From the IMG/VR virus record IMGVR_UViG_3300021255_000031: a stretch of DNA of 64,000 bases. One strand, written 5' to 3'. Each line of letters starts with the position of its first letter. Position 1 is the stretch's first letter. The notes under the pieces are model-generated. The model was not told where the DNA came from. It did not search any database and was given only the letters and a program-made list of their open reading frames with translations. Source of the stretch: a virus. Lineage: Duplodnaviria; Heunggongvirae; Uroviricota; Caudoviricetes. Of this stretch, positions 2,017 to 57,764 are shown piece after piece. A program made the position numbers and the translations under genes.

Positions 2017-2951
2017 CACTTTATCCACTGTCACCAGTGGGGTAGACTATCTCTTGCTCTCATAGTATATCATAAAACCCAAATAATTTTTATTATTTTT
2101 TGCGGCTTCAGCCACTAAACGCCTTACATTTACCGTTACGGTTGTTTTAGTATAATGATTATCAATTAACCATTGTGCCGCATCAGTACTACTTTCAAAT
2201 CGTAATAATTGATTATCTTTTTGAAGAATAATGATTTTTCCTAATTGTTGACCAGAAGTATATCTTTCAACATTATTTGCATTTAAAATATTATCTACCG
2301 TAGAATGGTCACAATGCAAATATTCTGCTACTTTTCTTGCAGAACGTAATTGATGATATAACTGAATTATTTCATCTATATCCCAATTATATAATTCTAC
2401 TAAGCGCCCGCCTATTGTGCTATTATATCCATTCTTATATGAATTATAATAAGCAATCCAATATTTTTCACGCTCGTCTAATTTATCATCTGCGACTTCT
2501 TCTATTGTCTCAAATGAAAAATTCTCAATACCATATTTTTTAAAAGCCTTATATAAACTCAAATGTGAAAAATACGGCTTATTCCAATTATTACGATGTT
2601 GCTGAAATCTTTTTTCAACCGGTTTTATAGTTTGTCCTATATAAACCTTATTATTTATATTATTTTGGATTTTATAAATATATCCCATATTATCACCTTT
2701 TTAGTAATATTATGAGAGCCCCCGTACTTGGAGCGGTAGCATCTCCGCCCTACATGGCTACACTCATCACCATTAGTCGTTACACCTTCAACTGTGTCCG
2801 TGGCTCTCCACTAATACAGTAGCTCGGCACGGTATTAACTATTATAGTTTCTACCGTTAGCACAAAAAAATTTTTTGCACACCGCTTGCTGGGCGTTCTC
2901 GGGGTTTATTGTAGTTATGTCACCATAACTAGGAAGCTATTAAATCAGTTA
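2017..2951 (-). mobile_element. Group I intron (935 nt) in dnaE carrying a GIY-YIG endonuclease
   Basis: 5' exon ends in U and intron ends in G. Splicing gives AGG TTT CTA AAT CCG GCG CGT = RFLNPAR before the catalytic DIDVD. Core-like elements GTAACGACTAA and AAGAGATAGTCT are present. Confidence 0.9.
2047..2688 (-). CDS. Intron-encoded GIY-YIG homing endonuclease
   Basis: YIYKIQN...VYIGQT, EKYWIAYYNSYKNGYN; C-terminal HTH/NUMOD-like part; stop codon overlaps the intron J8/7-P7 sequence. Confidence 0.9.
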   Translation of the reverse strand: MGYIYKIQNNINNKVYIGQTIKPVEKRFQQHRNNWNKPYFSHLSLYKAFKKYGIENFSFETIEEVADDKLDEREKYWIAYYNSYKNGYNSTIGGRLVELYNWDIDEIIQLYHQLRSARKVAEYLHCDHSTVDNILNANNVERYTSGQQLGKIIILQKDNQLLRFESSTDAAQWLIDNHYTKTTVTVNVRRLVAEAAKNNKNYLGFMIYYESKR

Positions 2952-4817: not shown

Positions 4818-5751
4818 CATATTAATCAATTATTTCTAATTGTATAGACTATTTTTTACTCCAATTTAAGGAGAATATCCATTTCAAACTGCGTATCAAT
4901 AGCAGCCTTACTCCACCCAATGTGGATAGTCGTTACAGGTTTTATTGTTCTATTTTCGTATAGGATAATCAATATTTTCATGAAAATGATTTTTCCCGAT
5001 GTTTATCATAGTAATTGCACTACGATTCCAACCTACCAAACGTCCGATTTCTTTTTGAGATAAAGAAGTTGAACGTAACATTTCTATTACTTTATCTGCC
5101 TTTAAGCTATTCAATTCTTTCTCTGATGGGCGTAATGGATAGGATAAATCATCACGATGCCATGACGTTCCTTCGTTAATATGGCGAAAAATATCCCAAG
5201 TGATACAATTTTGTTTTACAATATTTTTTCCTGGAATATCCCAATTCATAAGCTGCTCTTGAACTTTTTTTGCAGTATCATTACTAATTTTCGCGAATGA
5301 ATTATTTTCTCCACTATAATGCGGTGGCTCTTCCCCTCCAGATTGAATATTATATCCATAGGGCGCGAGACTTTTATAAAAATTTATATACTCTTTTTCT
5401 TTTTCATTGTAATCTTTAAACCAACCGATTATTTCAAAAGAAAAATTCTCTACACCGTATTTTTTAATTGCTCGATGAATAAGACTAATTTCATTATTAT
5501 AGCCATTAATATGATCTTGCCATCTTTTTGAAGGATTAACCGACTGGCCAATATAAATCTTATGATTAATTAAATTTGTTATTTTATAAATTGCTTTTTC
5601 TTCAAACATTATTTTCACCTCCTTTTTACAAAGATAATAGAACAATATTTCCCACGAGGTTCCCATATCAATATTGACTTAGGGTTTCTCGTTAGCCACT
5701 AATAAAAGTGACCCCGTTGATGAGACGGAAAAGATATTAAAGGCCAAGTCG
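4818..5751 (-). mobile_element. Group I intron (934 nt) in recJ carrying a GIY-YIG endonuclease
   Basis: Exon ends GCA GGT (U), intron ends ...AATATG, next exon starts CAT GAC. Core-like GTAACGACTAT and AAATAGTCTA are present. Confidence 0.88.
4950..5609 (-). CDS. Intron-encoded GIY-YIG homing endonuclease
   Basis: AIYKITNLINHKIYIGQS, PYGYNIQSGG; SD AGGAGGTG before ATG at 5609. Confidence 0.88.
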   Translation of the reverse strand: MFEEKAIYKITNLINHKIYIGQSVNPSKRWQDHINGYNNEISLIHRAIKKYGVENFSFEIIGWFKDYNEKEKEYINFYKSLAPYGYNIQSGGEEPPHYSGENNSFAKISNDTAKKVQEQLMNWDIPGKNIVKQNCITWDIFRHINEGTSWHRDDLSYPLRPSEKELNSLKADKVIEMLRSTSLSQKEIGRLVGWNRSAITMINIGKNHFHENIDYPIRK

Positions 5752-35797: not shown

Positions 35798-37198
35798 TCA
35801 GGTGTCCTCAACTTCCTGGGCCTCCTCAATATCCGGAGCAACAGCTTCATCCTTAGCGATACCCTCTAGTACCTTAAAAGAGAAGTTCTTATGCTTATAA
35901 ACCGCGAAGTTAGGACGGTTAAGGATACGCACGACTACGCCCTCGCGCACATGAGTTTTACCGATAGGATCAGGGCCATCGAAGTACTGTTCTACCTTAC
36001 GAAGAACATACTCGCCAGCATTTACATTCTCAGGAATTACAAAGGTTTCAAATTCCATAACAGTATGAACGCCCATCTGCTCGCAGCGCTCCTTGATTTG
36101 CGCAGGAGAGTACTCTACCACATCACCATCGGCATTTACCATAGTCATACGATAGACATATACTTCGCAGCAAGGAGGAACATAATAGTCAGTCTCGCGC
36201 CACTCGGCTAAAGTATAATCACCAAGATCTTCCTTATCGACAAAAATTTCTTCATCGTAGTGGCCATTCTGTGCGCAGCCATAGGAAAACACAGTGATCT
36301 TACCATACTGCTTAGAGAACTCGGGGTCCTTTACCTTAGAATTCTGAACCTCAGACATGATGGGCGCGCCGCCAGGGCCCTGGAAGCCTACGATTTCGTA
36401 ATACACTACCTCGCCCTTACGAAGCTTGCCCTCAAATTTAGCCGCCATTGCGTGACGGAAATCATCGGACTCGTAAAAGCCGCCTTGACGAGTACCATCC
36501 AAAACTACACGACGAGTTCCAGTGATATATCCATATTCCTTGTACTCCTTACCAGGGCGATGGAACAGCGTATCGAGCCAAGACCGCTTGGTATGAACTA
36601 GAGGCAGATATCCGGTGCGTCCAGAGGTGCCGTGCATCTTTAGAGTTAGCTGGACGATATCGCCAACTTTAAACTTGTCGAGATTATAAGCAAGCTGCTC
36701 GGTATCTACGTGCTCGTAGAAGGTAGGCGCGATGTTGACCTTTGCCTTGCGAGGTGTCTTCGCGCCATGATACTGCACGGATGCATTGCTATGAGGAATA
36801 TACTTGCGGCAAATTTCCTCACCATTCAGAACATCAATGCGGTCGCCCACTTTAAGATCAGAGATAGTGCAGAAGTCAGCCAGTGAAGTAATAGGCATAA
36901 ACAAACCATCGGACTTCTCGCCACGAAGCTTGATAGCCTTGATGTTGCGCTTATCGGGGTCAAGATAACCACCGCAGTAGTTACCGTTCTCATCTTTACG
37001 GCGCACCAGGTCGTTTACCGCGCAATAGCGCTCAGAAAGTTGTAAGTCAACAGGAAAATAAATTCCCATTGTACCGAGTTGAGTATCAAGACTAACGATA
37101 GTATCGTTTCCGAAGAAAGTAGCCACCTGAAGCCTATCCGCGTTGGAGTGCGGGCGCAGATGCTCCACCTTTACTACATAACCACAGTGATCAGACAT
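35798..37198 (-). CDS. ATP-dependent RNA ligase (Rnl2/DRB0094-like) with N-terminal tRNA-binding-type OB domain
   Basis: HSNADRL, IKLRGEKSDG, motif I KMHG, YYEIVG, REGVVVR, YKHKN; own promoter at 37232-37260. Confidence 0.85.
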   Translation of the reverse strand: MSDHCGYVVKVEHLRPHSNADRLQVATFFGNDTIVSLDTQLGTMGIYFPVDLQLSERYCAVNDLVRRKDENGNYCGGYLDPDKRNIKAIKLRGEKSDGLFMPITSLADFCTISDLKVGDRIDVLNGEEICRKYIPHSNASVQYHGAKTPRKAKVNIAPTFYEHVDTEQLAYNLDKFKVGDIVQLTLKMHGTSGRTGYLPLVHTKRSWLDTLFHRPGKEYKEYGYITGTRRVVLDGTRQGGFYESDDFRHAMAAKFEGKLRKGEVVYYEIVGFQGPGGAPIMSEVQNSKVKDPEFSKQYGKITVFSYGCAQNGHYDEEIFVDKEDLGDYTLAEWRETDYYVPPCCEVYVYRMTMVNADGDVVEYSPAQIKERCEQMGVHTVMEFETFVIPENVNAGEYVLRKVEQYFDGPDPIGKTHVREGVVVRILNRPNFAVYKHKNFSFKVLEGIAKDEAVAPDIEEAQEVEDT

Positions 37199-47165: not shown

Positions 47166-47783
47166 TCATATATCTTCTGGCTGCATAGGAACTGGAAGCT
47201 GACCGATTTCATTCCGATAATTACGAATATCGGCAATAACAGTTTCAATATTAACAGGATAACAATCGTGAGCATCCATTTCTACGTGATAACATTTATC
47301 TTTCATATCTAAAAATTTATCTTTAGTGTGCGTATGGCCCGCAAGCGCAAAAAGCTTACTATGAATTTTTTCATCATCATAATTACCAACTTTGGTTGGA
47401 TAATGTGAAAGATAAAAACTCCACTTACCATTTTTAATTATAGTAGCATAAGAGCAATGATAATCACCGACACGTATAATATGAGGACAATTTTCTTGGA
47501 TTAGTGCGATTTTATTTATAGTGTCGTGATTACCGAAAATCCAGATTTGAATACCGTTAAGTCGTTGAAGATATGGAATCGCGCCCGCTACATCATTCAT
47601 AGCCATATCACCCAAATTATATACCGTATCATCTGGTTTAACTACACTATTCCAGCGCTCAACAATTGCCTCGCACATTTCTTCTGTAGAGGTAAAACCG
47701 CGAGGTTCGTAAAGGAAAGGCTGAGAATGCATTAGATGTAAGTCGCTAGTTAGCCATATCTCACTCATTCTCTTATCTCCCAT
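47166..47783 (-). CDS. Calcineurin-like phosphoesterase
   Basis: TSDLH, LGD, GNHD, SHYP, GHTH. Confidence 0.85.
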   Translation of the reverse strand: MGDKRMSEIWLTSDLHLMHSQPFLYEPRGFTSTEEMCEAIVERWNSVVKPDDTVYNLGDMAMNDVAGAIPYLQRLNGIQIWIFGNHDTINKIALIQENCPHIIRVGDYHCSYATIIKNGKWSFYLSHYPTKVGNYDDEKIHSKLFALAGHTHTKDKFLDMKDKCYHVEMDAHDCYPVNIETVIADIRNYRNEIGQLPVPMQPEDI

Positions 47784-48253
47784 ATTTGAATAGCACGCAT
47801 ATCTTCATTTAAATGAGGTTCTCTGTATTGGTGATACATTTGTTCTAGCACAGTTTCAGGTACTCGCGCACGCCCTTCACGCTTAGCGTTCCGCCGCGCG
47901 CACTCCTCGATAGGAATATTGAAATATACATAGATAATATTATAATCAGAAAAAACAGTATCAATGGCGCGAGTAAGCTTTATACGAGACTTTTTATTTA
48001 AATGAGTAGCGTCAGCAATTACATCAACATTTGTAGATAAAAATGCGGCGATAACAGAAAAAAAGATATGAAATACATCTTTCTCATGTGAAAAGTATTC
48101 TTCTTGCGGCTCCAATAATTCAAAACGAATAGAGTCGCGTGAAACATAATGTATCTTTTGTTCATCGCTGTGCTTTTTGATAAAGTTCATTGCCCAGGTA
48201 GTTTTACCTGAAGCAGGAATACCACAAAGCATATAAAGAATAGGCTTTCGCAT
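47765..48253 (-). CDS. Polynucleotide kinase-like P-loop kinase (AAA_33)
   Basis: GIPASGKTT, SRDSIR, ADATHL, RNAKR...VPE. Confidence 0.8.
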   Translation of the reverse strand: MRKPILYMLCGIPASGKTTWAMNFIKKHSDEQKIHYVSRDSIRFELLEPQEEYFSHEKDVFHIFFSVIAAFLSTNVDVIADATHLNKKSRIKLTRAIDTVFSDYNIIYVYFNIPIEECARRNAKREGRARVPETVLEQMYHQYREPHLNEDMRAIQIWEIRE

Positions 48254-49231: not shown

Positions 49232-49421
49232 AGCTCCCGATAGGACTTGAACCTACAACCTGCGCATTACTGGAGCCGAGTGTGAGTTATGAACTCACAT
49301 ATCTTCGCCTAATTGATTCGTCAATCAATTAGTTTATCATACGGTCTTTTCCCTGTGATTCGGGTGTTTTACTTTAAACTAACTCGACAAGTGCGCTGCT
49401 CTACCATTGAGCTACAAGAGC
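49232..49421 (-). tRNA. tRNA-Thr(UGU) interrupted between nt 34 and 35 by a 118-nt tRNA-like insert (49271-49388)
   Basis: Removing the insert gives a 72-nt cloverleaf with GCGCA-CT TGT AA-TGCGC. Confidence 0.88.
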
Positions 49422-50632: not shown

Positions 50633-50705
50633 CTGGGATGGCTGGATTTGAACCAGCGAATGCGGGAGTCAAAGTCCCGTGCCTTAACCGCTTGGCTACA
50701 TCCCA
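50633..50705 (-). tRNA. tRNA-Gln(UUG)
   Basis: Canonical cloverleaf, CT TTG AC loop. Confidence 0.93.
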
Positions 50706-51871: not shown

Positions 51872-52019
51872 TGTGCCCGGCGAGGCTCGAACTCGCGACC
51901 CCTTGATTATGGTGGAGTATCAAGGTATTGCACCTTGTCCTCTATTAGACGTCTCTAATAGTATGCTCTTTACATTACTACCCCAAAGTCAAGTGCTCTA
52001 CCAACTGAGCTACGGGCAC
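51872..52019 (-). tRNA. tRNA-Lys(UUU) interrupted between nt 35 and 36 by a 75-nt tRNA-like insert (51910-51984)
   Basis: Removing the insert gives a 73-nt cloverleaf with CTTGA-CT TTT AA-TCAAG. Confidence 0.9.
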
Positions 52020-52298: not shown

Positions 52299-52715
52299 TC
52301 AAAGAGTGACAAGATATTTTGAAGTATCAATCTTCACATTACTAGCAAATTTAGATGGTGGTTCAATACGTAGAGCAATTTGCTTTACATTACCTGCTGC
52401 CCTTAAATCTGCCATAGGAATTACAAACATATGTTGGTCTTTATCTAAACAAAATAGATAATCTAATGGATGATTTAATATAGTATCATATACACTACCA
52501 TTAGTACCACCACAACTTTTAAGTACAATACTATTACTTTCACTTCCGGTAGCCTTACATTGAACAGTTTGAAATACTCCATCCTTTTCAACAATAAAGT
52601 CATACCATTGAGTATCATTTAGCGGAACATTTACAGTATATCCATTGGCTCCAAACCAAGCTATACCGAGCGCCATGCCTGCGCGTCCTTTGTCTTTGTT
52701 AGTTTCAAATAACAT
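52299..52715 (-). CDS. Free-standing PD-(D/E)XK endonuclease (homing-endonuclease-like) inside the tRNA array
   Basis: KGRAG...GYTVNVPLND...YDFIV...VQCKAT; SD AGGAGG before ATG at 52715. Confidence 0.75.
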   Translation of the reverse strand: MLFETNKDKGRAGMALGIAWFGANGYTVNVPLNDTQWYDFIVEKDGVFQTVQCKATGSESNSIVLKSCGGTNGSVYDTILNHPLDYLFCLDKDQHMFVIPMADLRAAGNVKQIALRIEPPSKFASNVKIDTSKYLVTL

Positions 52716-52801
52716 ATTATTCTCCTCCTGTGAGATAATTATTGTGGCCGATGACAGGAGCATCTTAATCTCATTAAGGAGCGACCTTAATGCTACCCAG
52801 T

Positions 52802-55700: not shown

Positions 55701-55817
55701 TGCTATCGAGTGGATTTGAACCACCACTGCGTAGATTTTGAAGGTCAATGTAAGTGATGACCTTACCGCGCTCTGGCTATTGACCGTCTACTGCCTCTGC
55801 CGTTGGGCTACGATAGC
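55701..55817 (-). tRNA. tRNA-Leu(CAA) with short variable loop, interrupted between nt 32 and 33 by a 44-nt acceptor/T-arm mini-tRNA (55742-55785)
   Basis: Removing the insert gives a 73-nt cloverleaf with GTAGA-CT CAA AA-TCTAC. Confidence 0.85.
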
Positions 55818-56849: not shown

Positions 56850-56948
56850 AAATTTACCTCATTCTTATAAAATTAATGCTGGGCAGGGCGACACTCCCGC
56901 ATCTCCTAACAATGGGCGATAGCTGCCTGTTCTATCCTCCAACTTGAC

Positions 56949-57089
56949 CGCCCGGTGAGGGGCTCGAACCCCCGACACTGCGGTTAATACAGAGGCGAGA
57001 ATTGAACTCGCAACGTGGGCGTCCCTCACATGATTACCAAATCATCTCTCTGTCACAGCCGCATGCTCTACCGACTGAGCTAACCGGGC
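56949..57089 (-). tRNA. tRNA-Asn(GUU) interrupted in the anticodon (nt 35/36) by a 68-nt tRNA-like insert (56987-57054)
   Basis: Removing the insert gives a 73-nt cloverleaf with TGCGG-CT GTT AA-CCGCA. Confidence 0.88.
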
Positions 57090-57099
57090 AAATTCGGCA

Positions 57100-57345
57100 T
57101 GCTATCTCTGAGCTGACGAGCGCCGCACCCGTATAGTCTTACCTATAAGTAGCTATCCTAAATTAAGACCTGATAGCAAGGTAATTATAACCGCTCATAA
57201 CTGTTTACGTTACTTCGTTGGCGGCCGCAACGATAGGCATCTCACCCAGTCCAAGGCGGTTTTTACTCATGCTGGAGATTGTATTAAAGAAAATGTCAAC
57301 TAGTATAAGCCAGCATCCCGCTGAACTACATTTTCTTTTACAAGG
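57100..57345 (-). ncRNA. Unidentified structured RNA candidate (about 245 nt)
   Basis: No ORF; several perfect helices (ATGCTGG/CCAGCAT, CGTTG/CAACG, GCTATC/GATAGC, TATAG/CTATA). Confidence 0.45.
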
Positions 57346-57372
57346 CTCGTGCTCATTAAACACAAGCAGAAA

Positions 57373-57450: not shown

Positions 57451-57495
57451 ACTGCTGCCTTTACCTACGAATAGATGTTTGCTACTACCGGCAGT
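57451..57495 (-). ncRNA. TAGCAA-scaffold RNA, copy 8 (minimal, UUCG hairpin)
   Basis: CTGCC/GGCAG helix, TAGCAA, ATCTA-TTCG-TAGGT. Confidence 0.5.
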
Positions 57496-57764
57496 ACGGC
57501 GGAAGTGGTTTTCATTCTCCGTAATCTCCGCAGAAGATTACCCTTTATTCCAATAAAAATACTAGGGTCTTTCTACTCTTGACTTATTTAGAGGCTCCCG
57601 TTGGGTGGCAATATTAAATAAGTTTTTCCTTACCATAGAAAGTTTGGACTTTCTATGACGCCTAGCCGCCGCACGCTTTCCTTTCCGGATTAGCTCAGAG
57701 GTCGCCCCAAGCGTAGTCTTTTCATACTCGCTCGCGCTAGCAATTATAATGGACGTTGCCAATA

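Follow-up and report, generated by a model that had tools for sequence, protein, structure and literature searches.

The split tRNA-Asn gene and its setting

The window analysed here, a stretch of 64,000 nucleotides, is part of a large ruminant-gut phage that uses code 11 and for which we infer a Firmicutes-type host. Its relative G002, a complete genome of 167 kb with terminal repeats, is ~98% alike around the tRNA-Asn locus. About 20 tRNA genes are clustered on the minus strand at 49-59.5 kb of the window, and CCA is missing from 15 of the 16 intact ones. The cluster also holds a PD-(D/E)XK nuclease gene (52299-52763), and in a 193-kb relative with 71 tRNA genes (G017; L247 and L250) it apparently occurs twice, in diverged form.

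The sole tRNA-Asn gene found in the window is a minus-strand tRNA-Asn(GUU) whose anticodon is interrupted by a 68-nt insert. Exon 1 (57089-57055, 35 nt) comprises tRNA positions 1-35 and ends in CU-GU, the insert (57054-56987) lies between anticodon positions 35 and 36 and runs from its own +1 (G) to a discriminator U73 with no CCA, and exon 2 (56986-56949, 38 nt) runs from U36 to G73, with CCA not encoded. The precursor thus measures 141 nt. Removal of the insert yields a canonical 73-nt tRNA with a fully paired cloverleaf, the loop CU-GUU-AA, and G73. In intron mode, ARAGORN called the same gene as tRNA-Asn(GTT) with a 68-nt intron. The sequence-only reading had placed a CCA-less insert at 56987-57054 of tRNA-Asn(GUU), and its coordinates and anatomy proved exact by ARAGORN, the fold, and the joined cloverleaf. 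Neither the window nor G002 yielded an intact tRNA-Asn. A skipping-rope RNA (56875-56946) starts 2 nt after the gene, and a cow-rumen-3-like RNA (57224-57368) lies just upstream of it.

That reading had allowed the insert boundary to shift by 1 nt, and in the window both placements do restore the loop. The choice was settled by a homologous insert in another phage (L280), which ends in C and restores the loop only in the 35/36 register; as no other register is permitted there, the junction is fixed at 35/36. The 34/35 register is incompatible with L280 and gives 3 acceptor pairs instead of 6, so it was ruled out. We also rejected a reading as tRNA-His(GUG) with an insert at 36/37, since the exons share G73 and the anticodon arm with 85 intact tRNA-Asn loci and L280 would then read Tyr.

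Other assemblies contain the same insert, namely IMG/VR 3300031994_000013, the G002 genome, and JGI contigs, as does a sheep-gut DNA run from a different study. Its recurrence in independent assemblies and in another study's data shows that it is real and rules out an assembly artefact. A relic of an integration site was likewise excluded, as no repeated tRNA half flanks the insert. An exact intron-less allele of the window exons was not found, the nearest differing at 7 of 73 positions, and no cultured phage carrying the 68-nt insert was found.

Structure of the 68-nt insert

The insert was predicted to fold (z -2.44) into an acceptor stem, a D-like hairpin, a short hairpin with a bulge, and a T arm, in agreement with the hairpins and T arm described from the letters alone. 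The 5' acceptor strand (57048-57054) pairs with 56994-56988. The acceptor stem ACAGAG/CTCTGT described earlier is present and was refined to seven positions, with a G1.A72 mismatch in the window that is G-C in L208 and A-U in L431, two of its homologues. The D-like hairpin (57030-57045) carries one compensatory U-A to C-G change in homologues. The hairpin that replaces the anticodon arm (57015-57029) has no 7-nt loop and is invariant in the four copies of the element, and the T arm (56995-57011) has 5 bp and a UUCAAUU loop.

With a seven-position acceptor (mismatched at 1:72 in the window copy), a 5-bp T arm, a 5' end at +1, and a 3' end at the discriminator without CCA, the insert has the make-up of a CCA-less pre-tRNA. 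An acceptor of at least 6 of 7 pairs together with a full T arm at the exact insert ends was obtained in none of 200,000 dinucleotide shuffles, and among the 68-mers of the window only the insert has this geometry at its exact ends. The end geometry is therefore far beyond chance. The insert is not a functional decoding tRNA, having a bulged hairpin with a 4-nt loop in place of a 5-bp anticodon stem and 7-nt loop. Nor is it a group I intron, whose catalytic core takes about 200 nt or more: the insert has 68 nt, ends in U (or A), lacks a terminal G, and gave no Rfam intron match. No bulge-helix-bulge was seen in its predicted fold.

The same element in other phages

The 68-nt element also occurs, with unrelated flanks, in divergent tRNA-Asn alleles of two other phages, L208 and L280 (G035). 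L208 resembles the window at 66/68 insert positions and 64/73 exon positions (p=0.06), and L280 at 61/68 and 53/73, respectively (p=0.01). In these comparisons, the insert is more conserved than its exons. The exons are nevertheless fully canonical in all three tRNA-Asn alleles that carry the element. G035 has a second, intact tRNA-Asn besides the split gene, and a ROOL RNA lies downstream of the split gene in L280.

A fourth phage (G060) carries a free-standing copy at L431:897-964, followed after 20 nt by an intact tRNA-Asn; no exon remnants surround the copy. It lies just after a homologue of window 57456-57550 and has an unchanged core, and the Rfam tRNA model gives it 31.7 bits, which exceeds the cut-off. 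The four copies together have 61 invariant columns out of 68, and the changes are confined to acceptor positions 1, 2, 71, 72, and 73 and to one D-stem pair; three of them are double-sided, and with only four sequences the covariation statistics are weak (21/500 shuffles).

Among 1037 tRNAs compared, the acceptor and T arm of the insert came closest to a phage tRNA-Met(CAT), agreeing at 29 of 31 positions where the next best reached 22-24; this match is suggestive only, as it was itself found with the query pattern. It suggests that the element descends from an initiator-type tRNA-Met with a 1:72 mismatch. A whole-sequence search for a parent tRNA gave no score above shuffles.

A wider family of tRNA-shaped inserts

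Three further minus-strand tRNA genes of the window are interrupted by sister inserts: tRNA-Lys(UUU) at 35/36 (51910-51984, 75 nt, CCA-ended), tRNA-Thr(UGU) at 34/35 (49271-49388, 118 nt, CCA-ended), and tRNA-Leu(CAA) at 32/33, where the insert is a CCA-less minihelix (55742-55785, 44 nt). The tRNA-Gln(UUG) gene, intact in the window (50633-50705), is interrupted at 35/36 in G002 by a tRNA-shaped insert of 55 nt that lacks CCA (L121:15652-15782); the exons of the gene also differ between the two phages. For tRNA-Leu(CAA), a related 44-nt insert is present in both phages (window 55701-55817 and L121:11101-11900) with the exons swapped. These exons have no long variable arm, and an HNH-like gene that directly follows the gene in G002 is absent from the window. 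Elsewhere, a 55-nt tRNA-shaped insert interrupts tRNA-Pro(UGG) of G060 at 34/35 (G060:39616-39749, L439), and one of 69 nt interrupts a probable tRNA-Lys(UUU) at 34/35 (L208:2945-3090).

Pattern scans collected 32 distinct tRNA-Asn inserts with an intact anticodon stem; their sequences are partly related, so that the counts are not independent events. With +1 placed at the splice point, 21 of the 32 formed six or more of the 7 acceptor pairs; moving the register by 1-3 nt lowered this count to 0-3. Among the 27 inserts with at least 5 acceptor pairs, the tail after discriminator N73, for which the search pattern allowed 0-4 nt, was absent (0 nt) from 10 and 3 nt long in 13; the 3-nt tail was CCA in six and AAG, AGG, AGT, or CAA in the others. 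Removal of any tRNA-shaped insert examined, whether from an Asn, Lys, Leu, Thr, Gln, Glu, or Pro gene, leaves a loop of exactly 7 nt. Six tRNA-Asn inserts of 49-51 nt (L256, L259, L261, L271, L292, and L299) combine G1.A72 and A73 with an AAG, AGG, or AGT tail instead of CCA. Another kind at 35/36 (L020, L021, L081, L091, L287, L288, and L290) falls outside the +1 rule: in these inserts, a 3' minihelix is preceded by a 5' hairpin and a linker, or the acceptor stem begins several bases in from the insert end.

In two other genomes, the anticodon arm of a tRNA-shaped shell is replaced by an HNH-type ORF, with motifs read by eye. One such shell, CCA-less and 845 nt long, sits in a tRNA-Glu anticodon loop (L243; G012:114077-114997), and the other, CCA-ended and 602 nt long, in a tRNA-Lys anticodon loop (L363; G030:28887-29564). 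The tRNA-Asn gene is intact in most relatives, and the presence of an insert is patchy. We infer from this patchy presence, from the conserved insert in divergent exons, and from the nuclease-bearing sisters that the tRNA-shaped inserts form a mobile family.

A proposed route of excision and sealing

We propose that the element is a mobile tRNA-shaped intron that is excised by host RNase P and then RNase Z, after which an ATP-dependent RNA ligase seals the exons; on balance, we regard this as the probable explanation. Host RNase P would cut the precursor before insert G+1 and host RNase Z after insert U73, so that exon 1 would end in a 3'-OH and exon 2 begin with a 5'-phosphate, the anticodon stem holding the two together. 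Cuts by these two enzymes leave 3'-OH and 5'-phosphate ends, which are the substrate of ATP-dependent ligases. A ligase of the phage or of the host would then seal the exons into tRNA-Asn(GUU). At the DNA level, the family may spread by homing, as the sister shells hold HNH-type genes where the 68-nt insert has its short hairpin.

The absence of CCA is informative because the 3' end of the insert then coincides precisely with the site of RNase Z cleavage. In Bacillus subtilis, CCA-less precursors are cleaved in vivo by RNase P first and are then cut by RNase Z on the 3' side of the discriminator; RNase P precedes RNase Z for leaders of more than 30 nt, and it also accepts a U73-UAA substrate, although with lower efficiency (PMC1874595). 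In the present precursor, the 35-nt exon 1 serves as the leader, and the trailer begins with UAA after U73. As CCA blocks B. subtilis RNase Z (PMC1874595), the CCA-ended sister inserts would need another 3' cut. With CCA missing from nearly all of its intact tRNA genes, the phage already depends on the host's P/Z route.

The candidate sealing enzyme is an ATP-dependent RNA ligase encoded at 35798-37198 (minus strand), which has a PHA02142 OB fold and ligase domain, a KMHG motif, and a distant DRB0094/Rnl5-like relationship. It matched PHROG 968 RNA ligase (E 3e-67) and scored 53.9 bits against TIGR02306 (Rnl5/DRB0094), below the curated cut-off of 151. No PDB sequence match was obtained for it, and its AlphaFold model was unusable (pLDDT 39). 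The Rnl5 enzymes characterised so far act on nicks in duplexes and join single strands poorly, and breaks in loops are sealed by Rnl1 and Rnl4 (PMC4408790). Since the phage ligase is nearest to DRB0094/Rnl5, whose characterised members prefer duplex nicks, a host ligase may be needed for sealing. A PF09414-type ligase match was found in 12 of the 12 near-complete insert-bearing genomes searched; this co-occurrence does not discriminate, because insert-free relatives have ligases too. Polynucleotide kinase-like and metallophosphoesterase genes, of the kind that heal RNA ends, are also present (47166-48253, minus strand); under the P/Z model they would be unneeded.

Among 12 genomes, no G002 gene was common to insert carriers and absent from insert-free relatives, and no dedicated splicing gene was found; the complete genome of G002 gave no RtcB, Rnl1, or RNase Z-fold match. 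The contigs of RNA run X4 cover exon 2 and read on into the insert, so only the unspliced form was seen; being contigs only, they leave splicing neither proved nor disproved. The only 68-nt skip found, in a DNA run, had a 20-nt side and most likely came from another organism's intact tRNA-Asn. For a fuller version of the proposal we see an even chance: splicing by the P/Z enzymes and a ligase would involve neither a dedicated nuclease nor a ribozyme, and the excised, conserved small RNA would shift between free and nested states, having possibly been born by ligation of a mature tRNA-like RNA into an anticodon-nicked tRNA.

Alternative explanations

The same two cuts could free the inner RNA and leave the outer tRNA unsealed, the phage using the host's tRNA-Asn and the insert being either a parasite that is tolerated or itself the product that matters, a decoy RNA resembling a tRNA. 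The free-standing G060 copy, with its unchanged core and a tRNA score above the Rfam cut-off, is consistent with this and makes it conceivable that the inner RNA is the selected product. The extra intact tRNA-Asn of G035, the lack of a spliced form in the contigs, and a phage ligase of a type poorly suited to loop breaks point the same way. We nevertheless consider the unsealed outcome rather unlikely: the exons have stayed fully canonical in three different alleles, and the restoration of the loop to exactly 7 nt in every tRNA-shaped insert examined is a precision needed only if the halves are rejoined.

That rejoining might instead follow cleavage by a dedicated phage or host endonuclease, with cyclic-phosphate and 5'-OH ends healed by the phage kinase and phosphoesterase before ligation. 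The phage does encode a kinase, a phosphoesterase, a ligase, and a nucleotidyltransferase, and some inserts, with AAG or AGT tails or another layout, misfit the P/Z rule. Such an enzyme would not, however, require insert ends that coincide with RNase P and RNase Z sites; the comparison of 12 genomes yielded no G002 gene specific to carriers, and the predicted fold lacks a bulge-helix-bulge, so we judge this route unlikely. Still less probable is that the 141-nt double tRNA acts whole and uncut, as a decoy or a Y-RNA-like partner of a phage Ro60-like protein. A gene for a DUF2828/TROVE-like RNA-binding protein is present in the window, weak YrlA matches lie nearby, and the insert is retained in the RNA contig seen. 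Against these stand the absence of the YAGCMA motif of YrlA and Y RNAs from the insert, the absence of a YrlA (RF02553) match at the insert in the window (L431 reached 21.8 bits against a cut-off of 69), the exact mimicry of mature tRNA ends, and the occurrence of the 68-nt element outside any tRNA.

The sequence-only reading had gone further and speculatively linked the split tRNA-Asn to a ribosome hop in dnaE, through which tRNA maturation would be tied to replication. The hop sequence is indeed present: AAT, then the eight bases TAG GG AAC, then CAT. A hop from AAU to AAC does occur in the window lineage, in which the split gene is the only tRNA-Asn found. The insert and the hop co-occur in that lineage alone (the window and G002, 98% alike), however, and dnaE begins without interruption in eleven genomes that carry tRNA-Asn inserts, among them G035 with the same 68-nt element. 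Two other genomes have an interrupted dnaE and no tRNA-Asn gene: near the 5' end of dnaE, a stop-containing interruption of 8 nt follows a His codon in G010 (L223) and one of 7 nt follows a Ser codon in G014 (L229). Furthermore, 448 of the 7651 codons in 16 window genes are Asn, so tRNA-Asn serves all Asn codons. The host's own tRNA-Asn(GUU) decodes AAU and AAC alike. Control of the hop by tRNA-Asn maturation is thus highly improbable, and as a conserved coupling the link is largely refuted by these genome comparisons. G060, with its free copy of the element, has no dnaE hop either. GIY-YIG genes lie within and before dnaE in the window (2047-2688 and 4950-5666), with no Rfam group I match at the gathering score.

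Relation to known systems

The nearest description of such an insert that we found is that of the tRNA introns of Lak megaphages, which were termed 'enigmatic' and among which a tRNA-Thr intron may encode a tRNA (Devoto 2019, PMC6784885, Fig. 4). The passages of that paper dealing with them give no excision mechanism (PMC6784885). The window insert shares with this type an anticodon-loop site, a canonical tRNA after removal, a tRNA shape of its own, patchy presence, and conservation across phages; it is assigned to the type on design rather than descent. The insert differs from the Lak introns in belonging to another phage group, in interrupting tRNA-Asn, in lacking CCA, in its remodelled anticodon arm, and in having a free-standing copy. 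It is a variant of a barely described class. The present case adds a CCA-less element of fixed register that occurs both nested, in three tRNA-Asn alleles, and free-standing, in a fourth phage.

The maturation of CCA-less pre-tRNA by RNase P and then RNase Z in B. subtilis (Pellegrini 2003, as cited in PMC1874595) offers a parallel in that the insert ends correspond to the P and Z cut sites and the order suits a 35-nt leader. There, leader and trailer are discarded, whereas here they are exons that require ligation. T4 Pnkp/Rnl1 repairs a tRNA-Lys cut by an anticodon nuclease (Amitsur 1987, cited in PMC4408790), and our proposal likewise has a phage ligase reseal a tRNA broken in its anticodon loop; it differs in that excision would be programmed, no end healing would be needed, and the ligase is not Rnl1.

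Group I introns, some with homing endonucleases, occupy anticodon loops of bacterial and phage tRNAs, and probable ones lie in tRNA anticodon loops of G035, G030, and G060. The inserts resemble them in their sites, their mobility, and their forms with and without an endonuclease; the window insert, in contrast, is 68 nt long with no ribozyme core and no terminal G, which makes self-splicing of the group I type impossible. Archaeal and eukaryal tRNA introns are removed by EndA/TSEN at a bulge-helix-bulge and sealed by RtcB or Trl1. They, too, are short anticodon-loop introns removed by protein enzymes, as proposed here, but the present insert lies at 35/36 rather than 37/38, has no predicted bulge-helix-bulge, is itself tRNA-shaped, and is not accompanied by RtcB in G002.

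To our knowledge, known tRNA introns are removed only by self-splicing or by a dedicated splicing endonuclease. No account or demonstration of tRNA splicing by RNase P, RNase Z, and a ligase was found in the literature covered, which took in few subscription papers. If the proposal is true, an intron that passes for a tRNA and is cut out with borrowed RNase P and RNase Z would add a third removal route, and would explain the Lak phage introns called enigmatic in 2019. The CCA-less member is an unusually clean test case, with a 141-nt precursor, two well-characterised Bacillus enzymes whose rules are known, and one candidate ligase, and the natural alleles with and without the 1:72 pair add to its value. 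The inserts also matter for annotation: ARAGORN misses the split gene when run without its intron search, and with that search it miscalls homologues as His, Lys, or Ser.
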